A DNA stretch of 64,000 nucleotides from Nitrospirota bacterium (GCA_963818475.1 CAWFSF010000006.1:512001-576000); one strand, 5' to 3'; counted from the first letter of the stretch, positions 34,878 to 52,675 are shown. Notes: a model not told the origin generated them from the letters alone. A program made the numbers and translations.

Positions 34878-34976
34878 TGGCGGGAGAGCATGAGAATCGA
34901 ACTCACCTTTCCTGGCTCACGCCAGGAAACAGCGGATTTGAAGTCCGGGACGGGCACCAGCTCCGTAACCTCTCCC
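34878..34976 (-). tRNA. selC: tRNA-Sec (UCA)
   Basis: Anticodon loop CTTCAAA, long variable arm TTTCCTGGC/GCCAGGAAA, TTCGA T loop, GCCA end. Confidence 0.92.
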
Positions 34977-38775: not shown

Positions 38776-38852
38776 GCCCCTGTAGCTCAGGTGGATAGAG
38801 CAACGGTTTCCTAAACCGTGTGCCGGAAGTTCGAATCTTCCCAGGGGCACCA
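38776..38852 (+). tRNA. tRNA-Arg (CCT); integration site
   Basis: Cloverleaf, anticodon arm ACGGT-TTCCTAA-ACCGT, CCA end. Confidence 0.96.
38808..38852 (+). repeat. attL core (45 bp)
   Basis: TTCCTAAACCGTGTGCCGGAAGTTCGAATCTTCCCAGGGGCACCA, identical to 52631-52675. Confidence 0.97.
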
Positions 38853-38860
38853 ATTTTAAG

Positions 38861-40072
38861 TTATTTCAATGACTTGGATTTAGGAAAAGACAGCAGAACT
38901 TCTCTACCTGGGCCTGTACCTGTGCCTTTGGCAAGGTTTGCAGTCTCTTCTTTATGCTTCTGTTCCAGCTTTTCCCTTAGCTTCCGGTGATACTGCGTCA
39001 CCTTATCCGCAGCCTCTTTTAAATCTTCCTCGCTCGTGATGTTGTACCGGTCGAAGACTGACCGCGTTTTGTGACCGCTTACCCGCATCGCGGTTGTTTC
39101 GGGGACCCCGCTACGTATAAGGTTCCTGACCCCGGTCCTGCGAAGATCATGAAAGAGCTTTTCGCTTAACCCTGCCTGCTTGCACGCTGTTGTCCAGGCC
39201 TTACGGCCGTCCTGCTTGATCTTGTGACCGTCGCGGAAAAAAACATATTGGCAGTCCGGAAATTGCTGCTCATGTAGCGCATACTGATTTGAAATCGCCT
39301 CATAGAGCTCACCCGTGAGGTAAATGATACGCGACTCATCGGTCTTCGTGTTGTCCGCGTCAAGGGTGATCTTGCCTTCCTCGAGGCTTACGTTTTGCCA
39401 GGTAATGGACATGAGTTCACCCCGACGAACGCCTGTGTGATACGCTGTTATCAAAACGGGCTTCAGGTATTCCGGCAGCCTCTCGAGGAGCTTCACATAG
39501 TCGCTGTACTCGAAGAAGCCCTGCCGGGCATTGTTCTCCTTTAGCATGGCGATATGAGGGGGATTGATGACCGTCGGCGGGCTTTGACGGGCGCCCAAGT
39601 TGAACATGCGCCTCAACGCGCTGAGCTCCCGATTTATTGTTCCATTTTCGGCGTCTTCTTTTTGCCGCTTCCGGATGTAGCTGGATATCTGTCCGGACTG
39701 GATATCCGCAACTCTTCTCCCGCCGAAATGCTTTCTCAGGTTGTCTATCAGCGACTTGAGCCGCGATACGGATTTTCTCCCGTTCATCTCGTAGTCATCG
39801 ATCATGTATTGCGCGATGTCGTCAAAGGTGGTTTTCTTGACTGCCAAGCCGGGGAAGGTATTTGTCGCTACCTGTCCTTCCCGGAGTGCCAGGACTTTCC
39901 GCGCATGATCGTAAGACGTTGACTCCGTGCTTTCACGGTACGGTTTCCCGTCCCTGTAATACTTTATCCAGTACGTTTTACCTTCTCGGGTGACGGTCTT
40001 GCCGTTCGCGGCCTTAATGGGCTTACCGTCCGCGTCCTTGCATGCATGTTTACGCTTGAAGATGCTTCCCAT
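38861..40072 (-). CDS. Tyrosine integrase
   Basis: [18 protein letters not shown]...RY catalytic residues; next to attL. Confidence 0.96.
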
Positions 40073-40073
40073 T

Positions 40074-40310
40074 CTATTTGCTCACCTCCTTACCCCTTGG
40101 CGGCCGGCCCCGGAGAGGCTTCTCAGTCCTCTTTTTCGTGCATGCAAGGGCAAGATGCAGAAAAGAGGGGATCTCTCTTTCTCCGTTTTCCCATCGGCTG
40201 ATGGTGACAACAGAGACTCCCAGGACTTTGGCAATCATACTTTGGCTATAGTTGTTTTTCTTTCGCCAAGTCTTGAGATCTTCGGGACTCATGGGGTAAG
40301 TATAATTCAA
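40074..40310 (-). CDS. XRE-family HTH protein
   Basis: [23 protein letters not shown]. Confidence 0.88.
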
Positions 40311-40336
40311 GCATTAACCAAATGTCAATAGATATT

Positions 40337-40597
40337 TTAGAAATGATTTACGGTCTTACGGCTCTCGATCCAACTGTCCATATCGCCTCGGTCTAGATGG
40401 ATACGCCGGCCGTCTTTGATGAAGGGAATCTTCCCGGCCCATAACATTTCACGGACAGCACAGACGGTCCGTCCCAGGTAGTGCGCTGCTTCCGGGATGC
40501 TAAAAAGCCGCTTCGGCAAGAAATCGTCAGTCGCTGCGTTCGTTTTCGTTACATTATCTTTCATCGTATTATTTGAGTTATCGAGTGAACCTTGCAT
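40337..40597 (-). CDS. Excisionase-like HTH protein
   Basis: LFSIPEAAHYLG...GKIPFIKDGRRIHLDRGDMDSWI. Confidence 0.88.
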   Translation of the reverse strand: MQGSLDNSNNTMKDNVTKTNAATDDFLPKRLFSIPEAAHYLGRTVCAVREMLWAGKIPFIKDGRRIHLDRGDMDSWIESRKTVNHF

Positions 40598-40604
40598 AAT
40601 TCGG

Positions 40605-42188
40605 CTACGCCGTTGATATCGTCAGCTGCACGTTCCGGTCGCCTGCCCGGTTAATCGCCGGGATGACCTCGTTCTCCATGAGGCTGTCCCAGTATTCCTT
40701 GGTTCCGAGTCCGTTCTGAACATTGATCGTGATCTGCTGTCCGCCTGCGGCCTTGCTGTCCGCTCCGGCGATCGGGGGCAGGCCCGTTCCCGGGGACACG
40801 GGGTAGGTGCCCACGCCTCCGCCAGCGGAGATGCTGCCGCCCCCGCCGCCTCCTCCGTCCATGCTTTGGGACCGGATGGCCTTGACCTGGGCCATGCCCA
40901 TGGCGATAGCCGCTGCGGCCGCCAGGGCGCCGAGCACGGGGCCGACGTAGGGGATGCTGGCCATGGAATCGAAGGCCTTGATGGCGGCAGAATAGGTGCT
41001 GATCAACGCTTGGGCCGTGGCCGTCGCCTTGTAGATGCTGAAATACTTCCGGGCATGCGCCCCGCCCTGCTCGGACATCATCTTGGCGGCGGTGACGAAG
41101 TTTGTGGCTGCGGCATTGGCGGCCGCGATCCGCATCAGCTTGGTCTTTTCTTCCTGCTGCGCCATCATGGCCTGGCGTGCCATGTCGCGGTTGGCGTACT
41201 CCTGGCTGATGGCGTCCTGCGCGGCCTTGGCATCTCCCCAGGTGGCGGTCTCCTGCTGCAGCCGGGCCATCTTAGCCTCTGCCTGCAGGTCGAACTGGGC
41301 CAGCTCCAGGTTGTCCATCTCCACCTGGCTGGCGCCCTTGGCGGCGATCATGGTTCTGAAGGAGTTTACATATTCGGCGTCTCCTGCGAGGCGGCCGGCG
41401 GCGGTTAACTTAGAAGGGTTATAGTTTTCATAGGTAATCTTATTACTTAATCCCGCACGGTATGTTTGGTCGGCGGCTATCTGCTGCTTCATAATTGCTA
41501 TTGATGCAATGGATTCCCTGTTTTGTTCGCGGATCTGACTGGTACGTTCCTGCTCCATGGCAGCAGTGATGCCATATTCGGCGTCGTACCCTTTCAGTGC
41601 CTCCGTGCTGTACTTTACAACATGAGTTTTGGTTTTAAGTGCATCCTCTAAATCATTGAGCGCTTTCTTCTCGTCCCGGAGTTGTTTATCCATCTCCAAC
41701 TTCAGTAGCTCGCGCTTTGCGAGGAGAAGATTGTATGTGGCTTTCTTAGATTCCTCGGACGCCCCGGAATGGGCATAGAGTTCCTGAACCGCACCACGAA
41801 GCGTTGTTACATTTCGTTGCGTCTGTTCTACATCATGCTTCTTGGCCGCGGCTAAGTGGTTATAAGCCATGACCGACGCGCCAATGATAATCGAGACCGC
41901 TCCAAAGGCAACGGCAAAGCGGCCTGCGCCGGCGACGACGTCTTCAACAACATTGCCGAGCATGCGTGCGGCCTGGCCGGTGATGCCAATTTTCCCCCCG
42001 GCAGTTTCGGCGACCTCGCCCAAGCCCCAAAAGGCAAGTCTTCCAGCAGTACCCGCCTTTTCCGTACGCTTGCCGGTATCCTCGGCCTTATCTCCCATAT
42101 CGCCGATATCGGCCTTGGCCTTACGGAGGGTATCCTCTGCCAGGTTCAACGCCCGGATGACTACCTTAATGTCGCGTTCACTTCCCAT
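40605..42188 (-). CDS. Phage tail tape measure-like protein (527 aa)
   Basis: DIKVVIRA N-terminus, Ala/Gly-rich helical body, ASIPYVGPVLGALAAAAA and ITINVQ C-terminal motifs; follows a chaperone pair. Confidence 0.8.
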   Translation of the reverse strand: MGSERDIKVVIRALNLAEDTLRKAKADIGDMGDKAEDTGKRTEKAGTAGRLAFWGLGEVAETAGGKIGITGQAARMLGNVVEDVVAGAGRFAVAFGAVSIIIGASVMAYNHLAAAKKHDVEQTQRNVTTLRGAVQELYAHSGASEESKKATYNLLLAKRELLKLEMDKQLRDEKKALNDLEDALKTKTHVVKYSTEALKGYDAEYGITAAMEQERTSQIREQNRESIASIAIMKQQIAADQTYRAGLSNKITYENYNPSKLTAAGRLAGDAEYVNSFRTMIAAKGASQVEMDNLELAQFDLQAEAKMARLQQETATWGDAKAAQDAISQEYANRDMARQAMMAQQEEKTKLMRIAAANAAATNFVTAAKMMSEQGGAHARKYFSIYKATATAQALISTYSAAIKAFDSMASIPYVGPVLGALAAAAAIAMGMAQVKAIRSQSMDGGGGGGGSISAGGGVGTYPVSPGTGLPPIAGADSKAAGGQQITINVQNGLGTKEYWDSLMENEVIPAINRAGDRNVQLTISTA

Positions 42189-42615
42189 TCGGCACCTTTG
42201 GCATGTTCTTTTTCCGCCACTCTGCTATCTCTCGCTTGTATAACTCGAAGGCTTCAACGAACCAGCAGGGCTGGTCTATCCACGCGCCGGGAAAGGGCAG
42301 TATCCCGGTCTCTTCCACCAGAAAGCAGAACCGCATGAGCTCCGCCGTCTCCTGCGTGATCCAGTTGACAGGGCATTCATAGAGGCGGATATCTCCCAGG
42401 ATGAAGACCTTGTCGAACCCCTTCATTTCCTCTGCGATTTCTTTTCTTTGCTCCTCGGACATACCCCTGAACACAAAGGCTGTTTCGTCCATCTCTCGCA
42501 GGTTGCCACAGTTACGCTTTTCCTGTTGCCGGTCGGAACAATCGTTACAGTCGAATGGGGGCTTCTGGTCTCCGCTGTTCTTCAGCTGGTAGCGGATGCC
42601 CCCGCAGAGTTTTTC
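42178..42615 (-). CDS. Tail assembly chaperone, T (frameshift-extension) part
   Basis: Frame stays open from the A-run at 42610-42614 into ORF 42178-42492; ECPV and LPFPGAWIDQP motifs; overlaps the TMP start. Confidence 0.65.
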   Translation of the reverse strand, partial: EKLCGGIRYQLKNSGDQKPPFDCNDCSDRQQEKRNCGNLREMDETAFVFRGMSEEQRKEIAEEMKGFDKVFILGDIRLYECPVNWITQETAELMRFCFLVEETGILPFPGAWIDQPCWFVEAFELYKREIAEWRKKNMPKVPNGK

Positions 42616-42997
42616 TCTGGCCCTCGGTAAGCCTGGAGCTGCTTTCCATTGCCATGATGATCTCGGTGATCAGATCGTTGTCCGCGGCGTCATAGAGCTC
42701 CGCAGCGGTGGTGATGGACTTGCCGTCGACCGAGTAGTTTTCGACGCCGACGACGTTCTCGACGAACTGTTGGCGCTGGACCTCGCGCGCGACCCGGGTC
42801 TTGAGTTCGACGCGTTTGTTCACGTCCTTTATCCCCCGAATGTCCTCGCCTACCTTGCGTTCAATAATGTTCGCATAGTGCTGAACACGGGCGAAGCTTA
42901 CAAACTTTGTCTTGATGACACAGGGGTTGTCTGATCCCCGCTCGGATTCGGGGGTGTACTCGATGATAGTATCCTGTGAAAAAGAACTTATGGCCAT
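42545..42997 (-). CDS. Tail assembly chaperone, G part
   Basis: Strong SD; VVGVENY motif; LTEGQRK at an A-run; upstream of the TMP. Confidence 0.65.
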   Translation of the reverse strand: MAISSFSQDTIIEYTPESERGSDNPCVIKTKFVSFARVQHYANIIERKVGEDIRGIKDVNKRVELKTRVAREVQRQQFVENVVGVENYSVDGKSITTAAELYDAADNDLITEIIMAMESSSRLTEGQRKTLRGHPLPAEEQRRPEAPIRL

Positions 42998-43158
42998 GGT
43001 GAATCCTCCTGTCTTGTTGAGTGCAATTTGACCTGTGCTTCTGAGACTGCCGAGGTCGAGTTCTTAAAATCGACGACCGCAAAAACGGGGGACCCCGCCT
43101 GCTTTTTTTTCAGTGTATCGATGGCCAGTTCATTTGCGCTGATGACGGCTGTTACCAT
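42988..43158 (-). CDS. Small hypothetical protein (56 aa), not in the ORF track
   Basis: GAGGAGGT SD, MVTAVISANELAIDTLKKKQAGSPVFAVVDFKNS...WP-stop, fills the operon gap. Confidence 0.55.
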   Translation of the reverse strand: MVTAVISANELAIDTLKKKQAGSPVFAVVDFKNSTSAVSEAQVKLHSTRQEDSPWP

Positions 43159-43217
43159 TAGACCTCCTCATAGTGGTTCATTCACCCAGTTGCCGAATCC
43201 CGTCCTGGGTATGACCT

Positions 43218-43745
43218 TTATTTGTTCTTGTTAATTTCCTTTGATATTTCATCTTCGATGACACGCTGAATCTGCGCGCCCTGGTTAAAATGGTTGAGCG
43301 CATCACGCAACGCGTCACGCGGGCCGAACTTGGCGGAGCTGCCGAGGCCGAGGAAGATGGCCCGGGCGTAGGATGCGGAGTTGAAGACCACGACCTCGTC
43401 GGGACCGGCATCGAAGCTGCCGGCGTCTCCGGATTTCGATTCTCCAGGATTGAGCCAGGCGAGACTCGATCGTAGATGACCCGTTACTCTCGGGACAGGA
43501 TATCCACCGGGCCGAGCCGTCAATAAATCAGATTGACCGCGCAATCTCGATTTTTTATGCTTGTCCGTATCCCGCAGACGCACCTGGGACTGAGCGCCGC
43601 CGGTTAACCATCGAAAGGCTTCTGCGTATATCCCGCCGCCGATGCGCGTGAGCCCCCTCCGAACCGCCCCTGGCAGTGCTTCGGATAGATGGTCTAAGTT
43701 AAAGATGACGTTTTTGTTTTCAACGGTGACTTTAACATCAATCAC
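43218..43745 (-). CDS. HK97-gp10-like tail completion/neck protein
   Basis: TGHLRSSL, VVVFNSASYA, GPRDALRDA match the TGxLxxS / YA / PRxFL pattern. Confidence 0.65.
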   Translation of the reverse strand: MIDVKVTVENKNVIFNLDHLSEALPGAVRRGLTRIGGGIYAEAFRWLTGGAQSQVRLRDTDKHKKSRLRGQSDLLTARPGGYPVPRVTGHLRSSLAWLNPGESKSGDAGSFDAGPDEVVVFNSASYARAIFLGLGSSAKFGPRDALRDALNHFNQGAQIQRVIEDEISKEINKNK

Positions 43746-44593
43746 TTGCGATCCCCCTGATCCCCCACAATACCGGTGCCGCTGGACTGCTGGCGGTCCT
43801 GGATGCTGCCGGCGGTCGCTTGCTCGGAATCACGCATGGCTTCAATCGAGAAGGGCGAGCCCTTCATGAAATCAACAAGAACAGGTTTTTCCCTCGGCAT
43901 GGGAGGCTGAAAAACAACTTCCCCGTCCCCGCCGGTGATGACTTCCGATCCGTGGGCCTCTTCCGTGGCGACGCCATGGTCGTAGCCGGTGCCGCTGGCG
44001 GTCGCTTGCTCGGAATCAGCCGGTTCAAGCAGGCCTTCGATCTCTTTTACGGCCTGCGATATTTCAGCCTTCGACGGCCCGCCGAACTCCAGCGTCCGTA
44101 AAAAGATATCCCAATCAAACGTACTTCCCACAGAATTTCCGTTCGCCGCGGAAAGATAAATATATGCCCGCCTGATGAGCGGCAGGTGTCTCCGAAGCGC
44201 GTCACGCTCCTCTTCGTACGCCGCCCGGTAGACGGCTGCACGGGCGGCCTCAACGGGATGGGCTCTGCTCGGATCATACAGCGATTCTAACTTTGTTATC
44301 TCCTTTCCGATCGCCGAAATCATCAATTCAGTTGTAGCCAAGGCCTGAGCAGCTGTCGTTCTCTGCGCATTTATCTGATCGAGCTCCTGAGGAGACACTT
44401 CGCCAAGGACAATTTTCACGCCTATTTCATCGGCTTTAGCTTCGACTGCAGAAAGAGCATTCCTTAGCAGGGGCACATTTTCCTGTAGCTCCGCCTGTTT
44501 GTCATGATACTTGACGACTTTTGCTGTCCTTGCTTTATCAGCTTCAAAAACTTTTTGAAACACTGTGATTGCACCCTGCCTCAACTTAGTCAT
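43742..44593 (-). CDS. Hypothetical coiled-coil protein
   Basis: 283-aa ORF, SD AGGAGG, helical N-terminal half, DSEQATA repeated twice. Confidence 0.7.
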   Translation of the reverse strand: MTKLRQGAITVFQKVFEADKARTAKVVKYHDKQAELQENVPLLRNALSAVEAKADEIGVKIVLGEVSPQELDQINAQRTTAAQALATTELMISAIGKEITKLESLYDPSRAHPVEAARAAVYRAAYEEERDALRRHLPLIRRAYIYLSAANGNSVGSTFDWDIFLRTLEFGGPSKAEISQAVKEIEGLLEPADSEQATASGTGYDHGVATEEAHGSEVITGGDGEVVFQPPMPREKPVLVDFMKGSPFSIEAMRDSEQATAGSIQDRQQSSGTGIVGDQGDRK

Positions 44594-44608
44594 ATTATTC
44601 CTCCTTCG

Positions 44609-44749
44609 TTATTTCTTCGGCGCCAGCAGGCTCGGCCTCTTATCGACTTCCTTTTTCTTTTCCCTCGGCGCCAGCAGGCTCGGCCTCTTATCGACTTCCT
44701 TTTTCTTTTCCCTCGGCGCCAGCAGGCTCGGCCTCTTATTTGTGCTCAT
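44609..44749 (-). CDS. Basic repeat peptide (46 aa), not in the ORF track
   Basis: AGGAGG SD; MSTN-(KRPSLLAPREKKKEVD)x2-KRPSLLAPKK. Confidence 0.6.
   Translation of the reverse strand: MSTNKRPSLLAPREKKKEVDKRPSLLAPREKKKEVDKRPSLLAPKK
44617..44739. repeat. Perfect 48-bp tandem repeat, about 2.6 copies
   Basis: Units start at 44617, 44665 and 44713. Confidence 0.95.
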
Positions 44750-44809
44750 AACGGGTTTCCCCTCCTTTTTATTGCTACCTGTATTTTACTGAGTGCCTAT
44801 CTCCTGTCG

Positions 44810-45097
44810 TCAAACTGCCTCATGGTTGAGTGTATCTTTCATTGCTCGACGCAATGTCATGACGCGGTCCTTCAACTCCTTCAAGCAGTGATTAAAATCG
44901 CCAATAGGAATCGGCACGTTTGCTCGATATGCCGCCATGGAAGCACGCACCTCCTGTGTATCAAAAAACATTATCCGGAACCGACCGCTATCGTTCGGGA
45001 TGATCCCGTATCGGCAATTTCGATTAATTGCAATGACAGCTGCCGCCTCAGAAAGGTCTTCGGTTTCCACGATTTTTGCTGCTGCTTCTTTTTTCAT
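44810..45097 (-). CDS. DUF5659-like phage/satellite protein
   Basis: ETEDLSEAAAV...F...LKELKDRV pattern recalled for DUF5659. Confidence 0.55.
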   Translation of the reverse strand: MKKEAAAKIVETEDLSEAAAVIAINRNCRYGIIPNDSGRFRIMFFDTQEVRASMAAYRANVPIPIGDFNHCLKELKDRVMTLRRAMKDTLNHEAV

Positions 45098-45115
45098 TTT
45101 CTACTACCCCCAAAA

Positions 45116-45426
45116 GTAACGGGCTCCGCCAGGACCAGGCAACCGGACATGGGATGTACGGAAGTTTCCCGACTTCCGTAACCAGGAGGTACCAGCTTCC
45201 TGGTCCTGGCGAAGCCCGCTATTCATTGAATCACGTCGAGACCGGAGCGGAACTTGAGAAGTCGGGAGGGAAAAGCTCCCGCTTGAAGGAGAAGAACCGC
45301 CCCGGTCTCGACGTGATTCAATGCAGCACATGCGTTTCAAAAAACAAAAAACCGGAGTCCGTAACAGTTCCGCTTGCGCGGTTGCCATGGGGGCTCCGGT
45401 TCCAAAACCTACGCAGAAGACTGCGT
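45116..45426 (-). ncRNA. Candidate structured leader/ncRNA with three large hairpins
   Basis: Stems 45120-45139/45199-45218, 45224-45245/45302-45323 (22 bp perfect) and 45350-45360/45391-45401. Confidence 0.6.
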
Positions 45427-45534
45427 CAGGCAATATTAAATATGATGTTGTTTTGTCGTTTCGCATAATTCGCTCGGTAAACTAATCTGCCGAAAAATTA
45501 GCACACGACTTGGGAATTGTATATCGGAAGTTGA

Positions 45535-45557
45535 GGTATCAGTTTGAAACTGATACC
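45535..45557. promoter_or_regulatory. Perfect 11-bp inverted repeat, candidate operator
   Basis: GGTATCAGTTT-G-AAACTGATACC. Confidence 0.5.
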
Positions 45558-45594
45558 AAGGCATGGCAGGGGAACAGGTGATGAAGCAGAAAGA

Positions 45595-46653
45595 TCAGCT
45601 TTTTCGTTCACGCTCTAATAGTTTTCTGATTGACTCGATCTGCTCGGGTTTATTGCCTGATAATAAAAAATCGGTCAGTAATTCCTGCTCGATAAATTTC
45701 CGCGGATCCCCTAGAAGAATGTGTAGAGTATCTTTCTTTATGAGCGGTATGAGGCGATGATCTATCGGATGGATTTTCTTTTCCCAATTCGGCGTATTTA
45801 TCGTTATGGTTTCTTTGGGGAAGGCTTCTCTGTAGTTACGATGCATGCTCCAAGCAATCGGCAGGAGAAAATGTACAAGGCCGGAGATATATAGTGTTTC
45901 AGGAATTTCACTTTGCTTGACAGCTGCACGGTTTTTATAAACAGAATCAACGAATCGGGCTGCGTCTTTCTTTTCTTTTAATGTTCCATGAAACATTTGA
46001 ATATATCTTTTTTCAAAGTGCTTTCTTAATAATATTATGCCAGGTTTTCGCGACTGAAAAAACGTCTGCATACTTCGAAGAGCTTTTGTGACTATGAGGT
46101 CCATCCTGTCGGAATGACGTTTTAAAAAAGCTGGTGATGCACGTTTGCCGAGGTAATCAAGATCGTCTTGTAAAGATAGTGCTTCAAAATCAGAAAAGCT
46201 CGCACCGTCAATATATTTCCCATTATTGATTTCCTCCTGGACGCGGTCCAGAACTTGTTTAAAACTTAACTGTTCATCATACTTTGTTTTTCCATCGACT
46301 ATGAATATAAAGAACTTATCTTCGTTTCGATGTTTGGTTCTTTTTTCCCTAAACCCATATCGCTTAAATTCAAAACAGTGACTTTTCCCGGTCAATGGGT
46401 ATGCTATAAAAACGCCACCGTGGGGAAAATGTTTTTTATCGGAACTGTCTTTGAAAAAGGGATATCTTATATTAAAGCTCTTGTCAAAAAGATCCCTTGT
46501 ACTTCTGCTTTCTTCTTCTAGCTGGGCTATCCAGTCGTATCCAAGGCAATCAGGCGGGATTTCATTGCGGGCACGCTCGGCGAGTATAAGATCCTCTTCA
46601 AGGGTATCTGGATTGCGTCCATATCGATCCTCTACAGCCTTATCCTCTCTCAT
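45595..46653 (-). CDS. Hypothetical AT-rich cargo protein (352 aa)
   Basis: Long ORF with visibly lower GC; no motif recognised. Confidence 0.75.
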   Translation of the reverse strand: MREDKAVEDRYGRNPDTLEEDLILAERARNEIPPDCLGYDWIAQLEEESRSTRDLFDKSFNIRYPFFKDSSDKKHFPHGGVFIAYPLTGKSHCFEFKRYGFREKRTKHRNEDKFFIFIVDGKTKYDEQLSFKQVLDRVQEEINNGKYIDGASFSDFEALSLQDDLDYLGKRASPAFLKRHSDRMDLIVTKALRSMQTFFQSRKPGIILLRKHFEKRYIQMFHGTLKEKKDAARFVDSVYKNRAAVKQSEIPETLYISGLVHFLLPIAWSMHRNYREAFPKETITINTPNWEKKIHPIDHRLIPLIKKDTLHILLGDPRKFIEQELLTDFLLSGNKPEQIESIRKLLERERKS

Positions 46654-46774
46654 CTCATCCGCCCTCCGGGTGCGGCCTCCGAAAGATGGAACAGGGGGAA
46701 GCCGATCGGAGTATCGGTTTTCGCCCGGGGTTCGACGCCCGGGCTATCCCCCTAGTGCAACGCTTAACACCTTT

Positions 46775-47014
46775 TCATCTGGACGTTTTGCTGCGTCTTG
46801 ATCCGGATCCCGGGGCCGGGATCGGCCAGCCTTCTTCCTTGAATACTGCGAGCACGGCGGCAAGTGCCTTTTTGCCGTCTTCAAGGGCTTCTTCCTCGGT
46901 TTCGCCGTCGCCTATACACACGTCGAAATCAGGATAACTGATCAGGAAGCCGCCGCCTTCTTCCTGGGTAAGCGGACGGATCTCGTAAGGATATTCGGGG
47001 ATATCTATCGGCAT
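46775..47014 (-). CDS. HicB-family antitoxin (short form)
   Basis: EEGGGFLISYPDFDVCIGDGETEEEAL...GWPIPAP. Confidence 0.85.
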   Translation of the reverse strand: MPIDIPEYPYEIRPLTQEEGGGFLISYPDFDVCIGDGETEEEALEDGKKALAAVLAVFKEEGWPIPAPGSGSRRSKTSR

Positions 47015-47274
47015 TATCGATACACGTCCTTCCTATGGCCGATCTTCTCGACATAGACGGTCTCATCCCGGTCATCGATCCGGTATATGACCCGGTATGG
47101 CCGGACGTACATCTTCCACAGGCCTTTGTATTTACCCTTGAGCGGCTCACCGCTCTTGCGCGGGGCGCCGGCGAGCGTGGTCATGACGGCGTCCAGGATG
47201 CGTTTTCGCTGAACGGCGTCGATGCGCTTCAGGTCCTTTTCAATTCGCTCATGGTAGACGATGTTATACGCCAA
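47014..47274 (-). CDS. RelE/ParE-family toxin
   Basis: KDLKRID, GEPLKGKYKGLW, YRVIYRID, IGHRKDVYR. Confidence 0.9.
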   Translation of the reverse strand: MAYNIVYHERIEKDLKRIDAVQRKRILDAVMTTLAGAPRKSGEPLKGKYKGLWKMYVRPYRVIYRIDDRDETVYVEKIGHRKDVYR

Positions 47275-47473
47275 GACGCTTCCTCATATCCTTGTCCGTG
47301 ACATACTTCGCGTTGGGGTTTCGGCTGCGCTCGAGGGCTTCCTCGTAATCCGCGATCTCCTCGAGGTGCAGTTCCAGTGCCTCGCGCGCGAAGTAGCTTT
47401 TTGACCGCCGGTACTTCTTTGCCAGCTCCGCCAGTCGCTTGTCCAGTTTTTCGTCTATTCTCACGCCCAACAT
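47264..47473 (-). CDS. Ribbon-helix-helix antitoxin (RelB-like)
   Basis: MLGVRIDEKLDKRLAELAK...RSKSYFAREAL; overlaps the toxin start. Confidence 0.88.
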   Translation of the reverse strand: MLGVRIDEKLDKRLAELAKKYRRSKSYFAREALELHLEEIADYEEALERSRNPNAKYVTDKDMRKRLGV

Positions 47474-47521
47474 GTAAAACCTCCATTTCGCGGTCCCGCG
47501 TCGATCGTTGAGACCGTCTTT

Positions 47522-47559
47522 TGTTTAGTCATGTTAAGCTATGTTTAACATATTGTCAA
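47522..47559 (-). promoter_or_regulatory. Sigma70 promoter of the TA operon with overlapping operator repeats
   Basis: TTGACA-N17-TAACAT on the minus strand; repeated T(A)AACA(T) units. Confidence 0.7.
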
Positions 47560-47646
47560 GCCGTTTTAAGATGGTCGTGAGCGTGACAGGCGTTACGCAG
47601 CGTGACCACCTGTAACGCGGTTCATTCGGCTTCATCCTGTGACGCT

Positions 47647-48297
47647 TCACCGGCCAAAGATAGCCGGTGTCCTATGTAGGCGTATATCATGATAATGCAC
47701 GTTATCAAAAGTTAAGTCCGCCCGAAAGCTCATATCTAAAGGTTCCGCATCGTCCGATCGTTTGAACACGATAGCGACTTGGAATGGACTGCCCGTGACT
47801 TTCAGCAATCGTGACATTTTCCCAATTTCTATAGCATCGGGCTGAATACCAAGATGGAAGAACTTTGGATGAGACGAATAAACGGGCTCGCCGGCGTCAA
47901 TACGACAATGATCTCGGATATGAGGTGCATTCGCCCATCTCGATGAATCCATAACAACATGGCCGCGCGTAATGACGAGTGCTTTCCCGTCCCCCAGATG
48001 ACATCTTAATATCCCTAAAAAACGTAAATTATTACCTGACCAGAAATGCCGGACCATGTTTTTTTCATCCAGCCCAACGGCAGATCCAGTGCACATGATT
48101 TCATTGGAATCATCACAAGAAAAAATTTCAAACCTGTGTTTAGGCCCTATCTCGTTCACGCTGCCGATACGCCAGCCGTGAAATTCCTTTATCTGTGTAA
48201 CCGATTCTAGGAGATTCAGCTCAGGTAGTAACTCGATATCTCCAATTTTTATAAGATAAGGATCAATAAAATCGTCCATGTCTTTCCCCCGTACCAA
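47647..48297 (-). CDS. Hypothetical cargo protein (216 aa)
   Basis: Long ORF, lower GC, no motif recognised. Confidence 0.7.
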   Translation of the reverse strand: MVRGKDMDDFIDPYLIKIGDIELLPELNLLESVTQIKEFHGWRIGSVNEIGPKHRFEIFSCDDSNEIMCTGSAVGLDEKNMVRHFWSGNNLRFLGILRCHLGDGKALVITRGHVVMDSSRWANAPHIRDHCRIDAGEPVYSSHPKFFHLGIQPDAIEIGKMSRLLKVTGSPFQVAIVFKRSDDAEPLDMSFRADLTFDNVHYHDIRLHRTPAIFGR

Positions 48298-48354
48298 TTC
48301 TGATGTCGAAAACTTGGCTACGTGACGCGCGTGACTTGACCGTGACGTAGTTAT

Positions 48355-48807
48355 TCATCCCTGCTCTATGATATTATTGATTTGGGTTACGCTCAACTTA
48401 AAGCGGAGTGCGATTTCTTTATGATTGGTCCCGTTGTAAATAGCACAGATCTTCAAGTTTCTTTCCATGCGATAGAGCGTTTCAATATCCGGGAACCAGA
48501 TCCGGCGGCCTCCGAGCTCGCAGACGATCTTGTGCATGATCGCGCGGCCGGAAGCCTGGCCTAACTCCTGGCAAGTGGTCATCCAGAGTCTCCTGAAGCA
48601 TGCGCTGCAGCCGTGCAGCGGATCGTTGCTGAGCGAGGCATGCTGATTGAGCCCCGGGTTGTTTGTTGGAACGCGGATACGCTGCCCTCCGGCATGGGAC
48701 ACAAGGTGCTCGATAATCTTTTTGCCGGCGGCTTCGCCATAATCTTTGACAAAACCCTGAAACAGCCGCGTGACAATCACGCGGTTTTGCCGGCGAGTAT
48801 CATTCAT
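48355..48807 (-). CDS. Mor/C-family transcription activator
   Basis: ELGGRRIWFP, ERNLKI...YNGTNHKEIALRFKLSVTQINNII. Confidence 0.8.
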   Translation of the reverse strand: MNDTRRQNRVIVTRLFQGFVKDYGEAAGKKIIEHLVSHAGGQRIRVPTNNPGLNQHASLSNDPLHGCSACFRRLWMTTCQELGQASGRAIMHKIVCELGGRRIWFPDIETLYRMERNLKICAIYNGTNHKEIALRFKLSVTQINNIIEQG

Positions 48808-49771
48808 CAGCCACGCATTTTCGTGACATCGACATTTTATTAAAATCCACCCAGTAATCAGAAAGCGATTCATTTTTCTGGATGCTTGTATCGCGTTGAG
48901 TGAAGTATCGAGCAACGGAGTCGAGACGAACAAATCCCATCCGCTTCATGATCTCCTGCACGTCGAAACCGTGGATACACTGCAGGTCCAGGACATGCCT
49001 TGCCCTGAGCATGTGAGTCGAGGCCATAGGTTTCTGCATCCCGGCACGGCCGGCTAGGTTGATCACGAGATTGTAACAGGCTTTTGCAGTCAGGCGCTGG
49101 TTGCCCCTGGGCTGTCCGTTTTTCTTGTAGCTCACCAGGAGCGGGTCGCCTTTCTTGGCGCCCTGGACCAGGCGAGCGCTCAGAAGCGATCGTACGATCG
49201 TACTTGGTTCCTCCCACAGGGCTACTGTACGGTTACCGCCCGTATTGTTTTTGACGATATTCAGGCTGACGCAGCGCCCATCGTCCGCTATTTGCCCCGT
49301 GTTGAGATCCGTTATCTCTGCAACCCGTAGGCCGGCGAAGACGCCCATGACCAGAAAGACGACGTCGCGGAGGCCCTTCTCCGTTGAGCTGTCGATCGCG
49401 CTGAACAGCTGCAGGACCTCGGCCCGCGTGAAGCTGTACAAGGGGTCGTTGCCGGAGTCCGGGCGGTCGATACCCGCGGTTGGGTCGAGCGCGATGATCC
49501 TGGAATGGATCAGGTACCTGAAAAAGGCCTGAAGCGCGCAAAGTTTAAAGTTGCGCCGCTGATTGCCATTTCCAAGGGCCTTGCAGGCCTGCAGGTAGAG
49601 TCTTACGTCTCGCTCCGTTGTTTCCAATACAGGGCCGTCCTGCGAAGCCTGGGCACGCCAATTGGAGAACTGGCGGATGCAGGTCAGATACCGTTTGCAG
49701 GACGATGGTTTCAATCCCCGAAATTCCATCAGCCATCGTTCGAAGAGATTCAAATCAAGATTTATATTCAT
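48800..49771 (-). CDS. XerC/D-like tyrosine recombinase
   Basis: N-terminal SAM-like domain, AGLRVAEI, THMLR, MGF...ARY. Confidence 0.88.
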   Translation of the reverse strand: MNINLDLNLFERWLMEFRGLKPSSCKRYLTCIRQFSNWRAQASQDGPVLETTERDVRLYLQACKALGNGNQRRNFKLCALQAFFRYLIHSRIIALDPTAGIDRPDSGNDPLYSFTRAEVLQLFSAIDSSTEKGLRDVVFLVMGVFAGLRVAEITDLNTGQIADDGRCVSLNIVKNNTGGNRTVALWEEPSTIVRSLLSARLVQGAKKGDPLLVSYKKNGQPRGNQRLTAKACYNLVINLAGRAGMQKPMASTHMLRARHVLDLQCIHGFDVQEIMKRMGFVRLDSVARYFTQRDTSIQKNESLSDYWVDFNKMSMSRKCVADE

Positions 49772-50257
49772 GCGCTCCCCCGTGCCCCCACTTTTTCACG
49801 ATTCACAATTCAAAATCTATCAAACGAAGATCACTTTCAGCCAATAACAAAAAGGCTTTTAGACTACACCCCAATTTATAAGCAGCAATGAGGGTCGTAA
49901 TCGCGACTGAGACTGATATTTTCCAAGGGGGGTAGGCTACCCCATGTGCTGATCACTGTCTGGATTTAATTTGTACTTCACCTTTCAATAGGTTCATCAC
50001 GTTTCTACCATTGATTCTATTAATGTTTATCACTGTATTGCTTACGGCAATGGCGCTTATTGTAGAAAAGTGCCATTGAGTTCGGCTGTAATCCGGCTGT
50101 ATTACCCGTCACGAAACGACCCATACGCCACAGACCGACCACACAGACAAAACGGAGAATAGACTTTAACCAACAACCACGGACTTAGAATCAACATATC
50201 AACCTCAAAACTACTTAGAATAAAATCACCCTGTAGAATCCTTTTTTCATTCGATGA

Positions 50258-51055
50258 TCAGGCAGTCGTGGCCTTGCCCTCGAAGCTGGCAATCTCAAGA
50301 ACTGTGTACCGAGTGACGAACTCTTTACGCAGCTGGTCTCTATCTTGTCCATAAAGCTCCCTGATCCGGTCTGAACCACCCAGGTCAAAGAATATCTTTT
50401 GAGACAGAGCGTCTCTGACAATTAACTTCTGACCAGGCGGCACATTCAAATCCTCCTCGAATTGCTTCCATGCATTATCAGCTTTTTCGTAGGAAATAAG
50501 CTTCCGTGGCGAATGATTCACCTCCCTCCCTTTAGAAGGTAAAGGCTGGGGTAAAGGCTGGGGCAAAGGCTGGGGCAAAGGCTGGGGAGTATTAGAATTA
50601 GTATTATGATCGGATACAGGTGGTATACTACCTGTATCCTTATTATCTGGTTGTTCTTTTGGGGTTTTCTTGCGTTTCTCGGTTTTCCAACGTTTTGCGA
50701 TGTTCTCCCGCGCCACCTTAGACCGCACGTCAGAATAGAAAACCCATCCCTGGTGTTTGCTCCAATTGTGAATCAAAGTTCGCCCTTTTTTGTCCTTATT
50801 GAGGAAGTTCATACCAGGTGTATACAGGTCGTTTACAAAGGCCATACAATCTGAATCACGGCCTGTGGCAATTTTCCATTCAGTCTCATCGAAGTCGGTC
50901 AGGTTTCCTTTCCGTGCATGCTCTGCCGCATACGCCCAGAGACGGAGAATGGAAAAGGCGCCATCGGTCCCGTACTTTGCAATGATCCTTCTCGTTTTAA
51001 TGTGGTCGAAAAACGACAACTTCACGCGGATATCATCTGGCATAGAGAAAACCAC
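50258..51055 (-). CDS. Phage replication initiator/replisome organiser-like protein
   Basis: FFDHIKTRRI...LRLWAYA N-terminus, PQPL linker repeats, DUF6475-like C-terminus (LGG...KEF...Y). Confidence 0.7.
   Translation of the reverse strand: MVFSMPDDIRVKLSFFDHIKTRRIIAKYGTDGAFSILRLWAYAAEHARKGNLTDFDETEWKIATGRDSDCMAFVNDLYTPGMNFLNKDKKGRTLIHNWSKHQGWVFYSDVRSKVARENIAKRWKTEKRKKTPKEQPDNKDTGSIPPVSDHNTNSNTPQPLPQPLPQPLPQPLPSKGREVNHSPRKLISYEKADNAWKQFEEDLNVPPGQKLIVRDALSQKIFFDLGGSDRIRELYGQDRDQLRKEFVTRYTVLEIASFEGKATTA
50538..50587. repeat. 12-bp tandem repeat x4 encoding PQPL
   Basis: GG(T/C)AAAGGCTGG x4. Confidence 0.9.
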
Positions 51056-51067
51056 TCCTTAAAGAGT

Positions 51068-51116
51068 ACTGCTCCAGGTGGTTGCCCTTCGTGGCATGGT
51101 CACCACCTGGAGCAGT
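51068..51116. other. 15-bp inverted-repeat hairpin between the recombinase and rep genes
   Basis: ACTGCTCCAGGTGGT...ACCACCTGGAGCAGT. Confidence 0.7.
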
Positions 51117-51124
51117 CAAATTAC

Positions 51125-51751
51125 TCATAGGGCTTTCAACAACCCCTCGGCTCGAGCCGCTCCGATCGTGAGCACATGTACTGCTTGCTCCATCTCCTGG
51201 TCCGTGGCCTCCGTATAGATCCCCGTTGAGGCCAGTGAGGAGTGACCGAGAAGCTTCTGGATCGTGGTGATAGGTACGCCCCGCTCCTGCATCCTTTTGG
51301 CGAAGGTGTGCCGTAGTGAGTGCGTTGATTTATTCGCGACAATCTTTCCCTTACGCGTGGTTGTGATGCCGGCCTTGATCATCCATTTCTCGACCAGGTG
51401 CTGGAGCGATCGTTTCTCTATCCGCCCACCCAGGCGAGAAACGAACAGCGGGGCCAAATCCTCGATGCTCTCTTGCAGAGTATTCATCTTGTATGCAATC
51501 CACTTATGCAAGATGTCCTGGATCCGGATGTTTAGATTGATGTCCCTTCCTCGGCCGTTCTTCATGTCTTCCTGTCGCACATGGAGCTGTTTCTTATTAC
51601 GAACATCGGACACAAGGACGGCAACCAGCTCGCTGGCCCGCAGCCCCGTATTCAGGAGCAGCTCGATAATCACATGGTCACGTTCGGCACCCTTTGTTTC
51701 CCGGACTGTTTTTAGGAGCTGCTTTTCCTCAGATGGAGTAAGATATTTCAT
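51125..51751 (-). CDS. Short tyrosine recombinase (catalytic domain only)
   Basis: TGLRASEL, HSLRH, LLGH, TGIY. Confidence 0.92.
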   Translation of the reverse strand: MKYLTPSEEKQLLKTVRETKGAERDHVIIELLLNTGLRASELVAVLVSDVRNKKQLHVRQEDMKNGRGRDINLNIRIQDILHKWIAYKMNTLQESIEDLAPLFVSRLGGRIEKRSLQHLVEKWMIKAGITTTRKGKIVANKSTHSLRHTFAKRMQERGVPITTIQKLLGHSSLASTGIYTEATDQEMEQAVHVLTIGAARAEGLLKAL

Positions 51752-51839
51752 GACTATTTCTCCTTACGCGGAGGGCCATACACTTTGCCCTCGATGTCGA
51801 TCCGGATACTGACCAAGAAATCCTGTTTGGCCTGCTGCT

Positions 51840-52166
51840 CTATGCGCCAGTTCTTAGCTTTTGATTATGCTTCCACTTTTCATCGATGATTGTTTTGACC
51901 ATCTTCTGGAGATCATCGAATCTTTCTTCAAAAAGATACATCGTTGATCCGACGTGTTCTCTATAGAACGATTCATCGTACAGGTCCGCCTCGAGGGCCG
52001 CATGAACAACGCGGATGAGCGAACGAATTTCAGTTAACCGAAGCGGAATTTCGTTCAGCAAGTCAGGGTCTGTGTGGTCTTTTCTTACCCCGCGGAGCAG
52101 CACCTCAACTGCATTTTCATTCTTCTTCTGATTTCCAACCCGTTTTACCATCTGACGTGCATTCAT
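51840..52166 (-). CDS. Hypothetical protein
   Basis: 108-aa ORF with SD AGGAG, co-oriented with the element. Confidence 0.6.
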   Translation of the reverse strand: MNARQMVKRVGNQKKNENAVEVLLRGVRKDHTDPDLLNEIPLRLTEIRSLIRVVHAALEADLYDESFYREHVGSTMYLFEERFDDLQKMVKTIIDEKWKHNQKLRTGA

Positions 52167-52240
52167 GTGTGTTCTCCTCTCTCTCTGGCCGTTCCGGCCA
52201 TCTCCTTAAGGTTGGCCCCCGGTCTCCCGGGGGCCCGGTA

Positions 52241-52474
52241 TCATGCAGCCTGTTCCTTACTTTGTCGCCAAATCAAATGGCCCGCGTCGACGCCGGCGAA
52301 GAAAGCGTCCGCTGCAGCGGTCCCGACGCGGTATGGTAGAACAATCTTCTTGCTCTCCAGCCGAAATGCGAGCGCCGCGCGTACCCCGCCCCAATACTCG
52401 GCGCTTCTCGGTGTTCGTGGAACGTTGAAATTTTTATTGAACAGCTCTTCGACGGTCATGGCAAATCCCTCCAT
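52241..52474 (-). CDS. Hypothetical phage-type protein
   Basis: 77-aa ORF, co-oriented with the element. Confidence 0.55.
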   Translation of the reverse strand: MEGFAMTVEELFNKNFNVPRTPRSAEYWGGVRAALAFRLESKKIVLPYRVGTAAADAFFAGVDAGHLIWRQSKEQAA

Positions 52475-52630
52475 TCTTACCTGTACCCTTAACTGTGCCT
52501 GCGAGGCTTAATCTCTGTCTGATTCGTGCTGACTCCATCTGACATAGAGAATACCAATACCCTTTAGAAAACAGCTTTTACCGCGTAATATCAGCGGCTT
52601 TGAATATGTGTAAAAAGTACCTTTAAAGTA

Positions 52631-52675
52631 TTCCTAAACCGTGTGCCGGAAGTTCGAATCTTCCCAGGGGCACCA
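52631..52675 (+). repeat. attR core (45 bp)
   Basis: Identical to the tRNA-Arg 3' half at 38808-38852. Confidence 0.97.

Follow-up and report, generated by a model that had tools for sequence, protein, structure and literature searches.

A candidate phage satellite carrying tape measure, chaperone and tail completion genes in a Nitrospirota bacterium

We have analysed a stretch of 64,000 nucleotides (nt) from a Nitrospirota bacterium (GCA_963818475.1, CAWFSF010000006.1:512001-576000; "the window" throughout), focussing on a 13.8 kb island at tRNA-Arg(CCT), positions 38808..52675. We propose, with a probability of roughly 55%, that this island is an integrative, helper-dependent phage satellite, or one that has been disabled very recently. 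The proposal is based on its intact borders, its selective gene content, the recurrence of related islands at five tRNAs, the colinearity at low identity with one of them, and the precedent of the PLEs of Vibrio (elements that resemble phage-inducible chromosomal islands). The only virion genes in the island are those for parts of the tail-tube lumen, i.e., a tape measure protein (TMP), the G/T tail assembly chaperone (TAC) that holds the TMP while the tube polymerises, and a tail completion protein (TCP). It is a discrete integrated element within the 5-20 kb typical of satellites, has an integrase and attachment (att) sites and belongs to a recurrent family, and no major capsid protein (MCP), portal, large terminase (TerL) or tube gene was found in it. 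An initial annotation had already interpreted the island as a tail-remodelling satellite. The gene calls on which it rested and the recurrence that it anticipated have stood; the claim of a distinct type has not, the G/T site turned out to be out of register, and no helper was found.

The features that define the borders and the tail genes are these (positions in the window; aa, amino acids; ORF, open reading frame):

38776..38852, plus strand: tRNA-Arg(CCT), detected by ARAGORN; its final 45 nt (38808-38852) are the attL core
52631..52675, plus strand: attR core, where the 45-nt repeat occurs again (repeat family D2)
38861..40072, minus strand: tyrosine integrase, 403 aa; PF00589 3e-22, phrog_1 6.6e-57; 48% identity with the integrase of the island in genome G011 (see below)
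40605..42188, minus strand: TMP, 527 aa; phrog_9483 7.5e-17 and three other TMP PHROGs; adjoins the excision module
42178..42669, minus strand: TAC T; the ORF starting at ATG (104 aa) is 42178-42492; upstream of it the open frame extends to 42669 and overlaps with G's end
42545..42997, minus strand: TAC G, 150 aa as assembled; 87 homolog representatives
43218..43745, minus strand: predicted TCP of the HK97 gp10 / lambda gpZ / 80alpha gp51 type, 175 aa; by fold and synteny

The two copies of the 45-nt sequence form a perfect direct repeat and lie 13,823 nt apart, with the integrase gene adjoining the tRNA-Arg end and all plausible island genes on the minus strand. ARAGORN, the repeat and the Pfam and PHROG matches thus bear out the integrated element that had been annotated, with its integrase and its excisionase (Xis)-like helix-turn-helix (HTH) protein. 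A DNA search of 40 relatives showed the island to be missing from all five genomes of the same genus, and in three of these five the att core is present as a single copy at the tRNA-Arg site. A clean empty attB was not found among the same-genus genomes; one of them, G003, has 2.4 kb of unrelated genes between the tRNA and the right flank. At this site in G003 (L144:1755-4123) there is a HigB/HigA-like pair together with kdpD/kdpE- and kup-like fragments, recognised by eye in the translated sequence.

Capsid, portal, terminase, tube, baseplate, tail-tip and lysis families were all absent from the island in searches with Pfam and PHROGs (26 ORFs), NCBIfam (15 ORFs) and permissive Pfam settings (10 ORFs). 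When the 362-aa tail protein of related phages, their Dit-like protein and the neighbouring proteins were searched against the island by tblastn, no remnant appeared (best E 0.06). The absence of head, packaging, tube and lysis genes noted in the initial annotation therefore holds in all these searches. Phages flank their TCP, TAC and TMP genes with terminator, tube, distal tail and fibre genes, and those of the island lie between a coiled-coil gene and the excision module. These observations bear directly on the alternative that the island is a cryptic prophage remnant, that is, a decayed mosaic temperate phage whose tail genes are inert leftovers and which neither forms nor borrows particles. 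We regard this as unlikely, although as an account to be taken seriously: the att repeats are perfect, the ORFs intact and tightly packed, and tube, Dit or fibre genes have left no traces detectable by tblastn.

The 527-aa ORF is a TMP, as initially annotated, because it matches four TMP PHROGs and its homologs come after G/T in phage loci. The PHROG matches fall mostly within the C-terminal half of the protein. It has no match in Pfam, PF10145 included, and there are partial matches to proteins that carry PF10145. Scans with the single protein recovered no TMP relatives from genome contigs or viral contigs. Residues 296-522 share 43% identity over 233 aa with the TMP behind G/T of viral contig L121, and the N-terminal two thirds resemble the TMPs of the other islands, so that the protein is a mosaic of an island-like N-terminal part and an L121-like C-terminal part. 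This C-terminal part has very short homologs (283-305 aa) in the TMP position of three related siphophage contigs (L124:8769-9635, L125:8648-9499 and L126:8777-9694).

The 150- and 104-aa ORFs are TAC G and T, given the fold match of the former in BFVD and the synteny in phage loci. The AlphaFold2 (AF2) model of the 150-aa protein (pLDDT, the model confidence score, 91.9) had as its top BFVD match a "Tail assembly chaperone" (E 1.5e-5, TM score 0.64), and 12 of the top 50 rows were named tail-assembly or tape-measure chaperones. Exhaustive alignment of this model to the PDB (VIA) placed YqbN (Z 5.4), the HK97 TAC (Z 4.6) and ORF19 of a PLE (5ir0, Z 3.8) within the top 12 of 48,161 chains, although these Z values are low when taken alone. 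Foldseek against the PDB gave no match at E <= 0.001 for either the TAC or the TCP model, and Pfam recognised no family in 67 TAC homologs. A homolog of the 104-aa ORF stands behind the 150-aa homolog in 11 of 14 viral loci, and in eight of the 14 a TMP resembling that of the window or of the G010 island follows. Contigs L124, L126 and L127 show the full neighbourhood: TerL, portal, MCP, the 362-aa tail protein, G, T, TMP, phrog_11633 and a tail fibre.

The junction of G and T departs from that of the relatives. T is in the -1 frame relative to G in all ten viral loci examined, and in six of the ten G closes with "...GQxKN" at the heptamer A AAA AAC, after which comes a stop codon. In the window the sequence is CAG AGA AAA ACT, i.e., the A-run at 42610-42614 has five A where the relatives have six. 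Because the run is one base short, G as assembled has a 21-residue tail unlike any homolog and T lies in the +1 frame of G, instead of the -1 frame that had been annotated and that TAC G/GT pairs reach by a programmed shift at a slippery heptamer. Translation of the -1 frame yields "KNSAGASATS*", which matches the normal G end of the homologs. The short A-run is either a true one-base deletion or a homopolymer assembly error. The genome is assembled in only seven contigs, so that a long-read homopolymer error at the A-run is conceivable.

For the 175-aa protein the match to PF04883 (HK97-gp10_like) was below threshold (15.6 bits with a cutoff of 21.4, E 0.032), and only one of its 37 homologs (39-70% identity) carries this family. 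Its AF2 model, built on 32 homologs, reached a pLDDT of 78. In the exhaustive alignment, chain 9mu2_P came first with Z 9.8 (root-mean-square deviation 3.7, 107 of 109 residues), and the next chain had Z 5.4. This chain is probably 80alpha gp51, going by its residue range, which coincides with the 7-115 reported for that TCP (PMC11661146). The structural paper equates gp51 with lambda gpZ, SPP1 gp16.1 and HK97 gp10, and describes it as touching the TMP N-termini and the DNA end (PMC11661146). In viral loci the homologs stand after the MCP and before the TMP. As a lone query against viral contigs the protein found nothing. Taken together, model and synteny indicate a TCP of the HK97 gp10 / lambda gpZ type, in line with the earlier call of a gp10-like protein.

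Small capsid-less islands with a TMP recur within the same taxonomic family, as the initial annotation had anticipated for elements of this layout. A TMP profile matched 8 of 64 genomes of the family: five islands of 10-15 kb at tRNAs, two ordinary prophage structural modules (G078 and G062, TMPs of 567 and 565 aa) and a fragment at a contig end (G046). The five islands (the window and genomes G010, G011, G021 and G047) sit at five different tRNAs and have TMPs of 452-527 aa. The four sister islands are:

G010: 15.2 kb, tRNA-Gly(GCC), 63-nt att repeats
G021: 11.3 kb, tRNA-SeC, homologous TMP
G047: 10.2 kb, tRNA-Gly(CCC), homologous TMP
G011: tRNA-Leu, integrase, HTH protein, Xis-like protein, small terminase (TerS)-like protein and TMP, then an insertion sequence (IS) and the contig end

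In all four the TMP gene adjoins the integrase end, and no capsid genes were found in them. The island TMPs are each other's best full-length matches (33-37% identity among G010, G011 and G021, and 26-29% between these and the window), and strong full-length matches occur only in these five of the 401 genomes of the phylum that were sampled. The islands form a small group that, among the genomes searched, is limited to a single family of what appears to be a Nitrospirota lineage. That four further islands of 10-15 kb, at four other tRNAs, have kept a full-length TMP is not what would be expected of prophages in decay.

The G010 island is the closest relative of the whole element. The DNA search of the 40 relatives had given short matches only, one of which pointed to G010; at the protein level this island is colinear with that of the window across its full length, with identities of 26-52%. 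The remaining genes of the window island, with their G010 counterparts where there are any, are as follows:

40074..40310, minus strand: HTH_3 regulator, 78 aa; PF01381 2.8e-12; 65-68% identity in the G011 island
40337..40597, minus strand: HTH_17 protein (AlpA/Xis-like), 86 aa, putative excisionase or regulator; PF12728 2.1e-9, phrog_66 1.6e-6
42988..43158, minus strand: 56-aa ORF without family match
43742..44593, minus strand: coiled-coil protein, 283 aa; 23% identity (E 1e-9) to a 198-aa protein of G010
44609..44749, minus strand: 46-aa peptide of three tandem repeats (48-nt unit), each with SLLAP(R/K); strong Shine-Dalgarno sequence
44810..45097, minus strand: 95-aa ORF at the position of the G010 DUF5659 gene; E 2e-4 to an 85-aa ORF of the G047 island
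45595..46653, minus strand: 352-aa protein specific to this island type; 33-38% identity to G010
46775..47014, minus strand: HicB-like protein, 79 aa, partner of the following gene
47014..47274, minus strand: ParE/RelE protein, 86 aa, forming a type II toxin-antitoxin-like pair with the HicB-like protein; PF05016 2.5e-13 and phrog_497 4e-13 (values for the pair)
47647..48297, minus strand: 216-aa accessory ORF without match in Pfam, PHROGs, NCBIfam or PADLOC
48355..48933, minus strand: Mor-family transcription activator; PF08765 2.8e-16; 52% identity to G010
48800..49771, minus strand: second tyrosine recombinase, 323 aa; PF00589 8.8e-15; 39-43% identity to two G010 copies
50258..51055, minus strand: replication initiator-like protein (Rep), 265 aa; phrog_9474 7.1e-9, at PHROG level only; 39% identity to G010
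51125..51751, minus strand: third tyrosine recombinase, 208 aa, catalytic domain only; PF00589 3.7e-35; 45% identity to G010
51840..52474, minus strand: two small ORFs (108 and 77 aa) at the attR end, without family match; the 108-aa ORF is 42% identical to a 190-aa protein of G010

The order in G010 is: the homolog of the 108-aa ORF, small recombinase, Rep, recombinase(s), Mor, the homolog of the 352-aa protein, a DUF5659 protein, a 312-aa protein, the coiled-coil protein, a TMP likewise of 527 aa, three unassigned ORFs, HTH_17, a Phd-like protein and the integrase. Such colinearity at 26-52% identity would be hard to obtain by independent decay of two prophages, and a small common ancestor is the more economical explanation.

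The individual structural genes tell a different story from the element as a whole. The TCP has homologs in 27 metagenome and 55 viral loci, many on contigs of 40-50 kb, in which the order is a recombinase like that of 323 aa, Mor, about 5.5 kb containing TerL and portal, phrog_16951, decoration/scaffold and MCP, TCP and, further downstream, TMP. The homologs of the 323-aa recombinase precede Mor in these viral loci, and in related phages those of Mor come upstream of the structural genes. Homologs of G, T and the TMP sit in complete siphophage modules. No TCP locus was found to have a match to the 150- or 104-aa protein, and no G/T locus one to the TCP, which points to two source phage groups: the island backbone mirrors one phage lineage without its large genes, and G/T with the C-terminus of the TMP derive from a second, siphophage lineage. 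It is here that the remnant explanation finds support, since the island preserves the phage order recombinase, Mor, TerL, portal, phrog_16951, MCP, TCP and TMP minus the large genes, and its G/T and TMP homologs belong to complete modules. The one-base-short slippery run in G, a 46-aa peptide that could be the leftover of a 312-aa gene, the in-frame stop in one G010 gene, the IS in G011, and the lack of a detected helper and of a packaging function in the window island would also suit a decaying prophage. On the other side, structural genes from two phage groups are not what one deleted parent would leave behind. The initial annotation had named full-length prophages as the closest relatives that would speak against it. 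For the whole element the closest relative is the G010 island, with no tube or tip remnants in the window island, and it is only for the structural genes taken one by one that the nearest relatives belong to full phage modules.

We return to the proposal that the island is a satellite, and several observations weigh against it. Its excision, replication and packaging are presumed from its genes. No helper was found: PF05065, PF03354, PF04860 and PF10145 (Phage_capsid, TerL_ATPase, Phage_portal and PhageMin_Tail) are absent from its own genome, which is 91% complete, and phrog_2 (TerL) and phrog_29 (MCP) are absent from all five island-bearing genomes. No TerS or other packaging-redirection gene was detected in the window island (there was no phrog_57 match). 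G is frameshifted at the slippery run, and either its normal end or a G-T product would need an unusual shift. The nearest relatives of TCP and G/T belong to full, ordinary phage modules, many of them on contigs of 35-50 kb, and TCP and G/T homologs are absent from the other four islands; the tail cassette may thus have been captured recently or be left over. Finally, the G010 homolog of the 352-aa gene (L010:10958-12256) is broken by one in-frame stop, which could mean a pseudogene, two genes or recoding, and the G011 island is interrupted by the IS.

The helper prophage for which a search of the same genome had been suggested was not detected either by tblastn with structural proteins from prophages G078 and G062, the only result being one weak match to a 154-aa ORF elsewhere on the window contig. 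The capsid, portal and terminase searches of this genome covered its small contigs C4 (20.6 kb) and C7 (17.8 kb), both of them possible plasmids or mobile DNA of another kind. A helper, if one exists, would come from outside the cell, as ICP1 does for the PLEs. In the mechanism that we envisage, a helper from the Mor-bearing lineages with homologous genes would infect, and late activation of the Mor type would turn on the island operon. A Mor-like late activator able to cross-talk with the helper recalls P4 delta and P2 Ogr. The island TMP with its cognate TAC and TCP would then replace those of the helper in tails whose tube, terminator and tip proteins come from the helper. Such chimeric tails would be about 80 nm long (527 aa at about 1.5 Å of tail length per TMP residue, the lambda ratio), and the island DNA would be packaged into helper-made heads.

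The principle is already published, for PLEs in 2026 and for the EPIPs of Mycolicibacterium aichiense in 2025, and we read the island family as a variant that is unrelated to them and whose set of parts differs, a TCP joining TAC and TMP. The "distinct satellite type" of the initial annotation thus overstated the novelty (PMC12987554, PMC12822802). PLEs have genes for a TMP, a TAC and a baseplate hub, chimeric tails containing the satellite TMP were detected by transmission electron microscopy (TEM), western blot and mass spectrometry, and deletion of the PLE tmp cut transduction by about 99.9% (PMC12987554). The legend of its Extended Data Fig. 10 also mentions putative tmp genes in PLE-like elements and in cf-PICIs, which are phage-inducible chromosomal islands that form capsids (PMC12987554). 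Like PLE11, PLE1 and PLE4 (Vibrio cholerae, helper ICP1), the island is small, has no tail tube or sheath and brings its own TMP and TAC. The structural link is the weak match of the TAC model to 5ir0 (Z 3.8), the likeness to PLEs being otherwise descriptive. The island differs in its tyrosine integrase at a tRNA, in having a TCP in place of the baseplate hub, in the addition of Mor, Rep and two extra recombinases, in the phylum of its host, and in being known here from genes alone. EPIPs share with it the TMP; the 2025 bioRxiv report gives them a TMP and neck proteins, no tail tube or holin, and altered tail length by TEM (PMC12822802). They have a serine integrase, TerS, scaffold and MCP, whereas the island has a tyrosine integrase (PF00589) and neither TerS nor MCP was found in it.

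Other satellites are more distant. The island shares with the PICIs, including the Staphylococcus aureus pathogenicity islands (SaPIs), and with P4-like elements a size of 10-15 kb, an integrase at att, an AlpA/Xis-like HTH protein, its own Rep and a presumed dependence on helper virion genes. Those elements remodel capsids or packaging and not tails, and the window island has no homolog of TerS, CpmAB, Sid or primase. SaPI-type PICIs are recognised by their own TerS and/or genes that redirect capsid size, which the window island lacks. The sister islands come closer, as G011, G021 and G047 (and only these) have a TerS-like gene; a hidden Markov model of these proteins found nothing in the window or in G010. 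Nor does the window island have the capsid, portal, protease and connector set of cf-PICIs, G010 alone keeping a protein at the protease position. The 175-, 150/104- and 527-aa genes correspond, by homology or by structure, to the tail-core modules of phages (lambda gpG/gpGT-gpH with gpZ, HK97 gp10, and 80alpha gp51-gp56).

If the satellite reading is right, the substitution of the tail core by a satellite, shown so far only for the Vibrio PLEs, would extend to an uncultured, apparently Nitrospirota lineage. A set of TCP, TAC and TMP without hub, capsid or TerS would further point to the contact of TMP, TCP and DNA end as a possible specificity point owned by the satellite. The five-member family and two candidate helper lineages could be sought in metagenomes, in a lineage that has no cultured phage-host systems. 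If the island is a remnant, it is an ordinary one. Judged from titles and the opening lines of abstracts, such islands are not described in the papers found by a search for Nitrospirota prophages and satellites.

The 46-aa peptide sits where G010 has its 312-aa protein (L010:9196-10134), which belongs to phrog_16951 and has homologs in 57 loci (up to 68% identity); going by gene order, this protein probably takes the place usual for a prohead protease. The repeats of the peptide end in "...SLLAPKK" and the G010 protein in "...NPLAPKK", with three copies of the motif in each. Among 46 different phage C-termini, 23 had an NPLxPK motif in their final 20 residues and only two had more than one copy; the pattern was drawn up with these sequences in view, which biases the counts. 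The peptide could imitate a capsid-targeting tail in multivalent form, or it could simply be left over from a deleted gene. A bolder version of the satellite reading, which we consider doubtful, would have the island family take over both ends of virion assembly, with the full tail-lumen set on one side and a multimerised mimic of the NPLxPK tail of the helper phrog_16951 protein on the other. The TCP would clamp the TMP N-termini to the DNA end, so that only satellite-type tails would be capped and joined productively. The mimic would compete for the capsid interior and divert or resize the helper heads, if NPLxPK is assumed to be a capsid-targeting signal. Competition of this sort is known from SaPI CpmB and the 80alpha scaffold.

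The remaining genes invite two other interpretations. One is that the island is an integrative plasmid-like or mobilisable element whose TMP-like genes serve other ends, such as blocking the tail assembly of infecting phages; we find this improbable. Rep, the two extra tyrosine recombinases and the ParE/HicB-like pair (this last missing from the initial gene list) are typical plasmid-maintenance functions, and the N-terminal domain of Rep recurs on unrelated small contigs. The single recombinase first annotated, the integrase, is real, and there are three. Interference with tail assembly is also documented, e.g., Rta in PLE11 (PMC12987554) and the Tai systems (PMC11364771). No conjugation or mobilisation gene was found with Pfam, PHROGs or NCBIfam, however, and PADLOC recognised no defence family in 15 island proteins. 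A cognate TAC and TCP beside the TMP also fit a working tail core better than pure interference.

The other is a complete, very small virus of unfamiliar kind, with capsid and packaging supplied by the 352-, 283- and 216-aa ORFs. It is true that five ORFs of 95-352 aa have no recognisable family, but an HK97-fold, portal or terminase signal did not appear in any search, the tube and tip genes are missing, and 13.8 kb is too small for a tailed-phage gene set; we give this idea hardly any credence. The 352-aa protein had no homolog besides that of G010 among 5.8 billion proteins and no ESM Atlas neighbour at >= 0.8, and a scan with it gave one marginal match spanning 32 residues. The 283-aa coiled-coil protein could be a scaffold- or decoration-like head factor; a profile of it with the 198-aa G010 protein retrieved only coiled-coil noise from PDB sequences. 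A faint lead from ESM features (low recognition, 1545) suggested a relative of P4 Psu, and we have not relied on it. The 95-aa ORF had been called DUF5659-like. It has no Pfam match, hhalign to the G010 DUF5659 protein gave E 0.046 with a probability of 1%, and only the G010 gene matches DUF5659. Mor and Rep were upheld, the former by PF08765 and the latter by phrog_9474. Promoter and terminator scans were near chance (17 found with 11.2 ± 3.2 expected, and 19 with 17.4).

Some minor observations concern the sister islands and Rep. The window contains a tRNA-SeC at 34878-34976 that is unoccupied, and it is in tRNA-SeC (L029:17129-17227), an unusual att site, that the G021 island is inserted. 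A 173-aa ORF of that island (L029:14613-15134) matches an ATP-dependent DNA ligase PHROG at 7e-11. The loci found in the Rep alignment search share the N-terminal domain of Rep and nothing else with the island. Two of them, L012 (10.3 kb) and L013 (7.1 kb), binned to archaeal metagenome-assembled genomes, have a Rep N-domain 62% identical to that of the island and nothing else in common with it, and may be mis-binned small mobile elements. Within the Rep gene of the window a 12-nt tandem repeat (3.9 copies, 50541-50587) encodes a PQPL repeat linker, at the place where the G010 Rep has an SP repeat.

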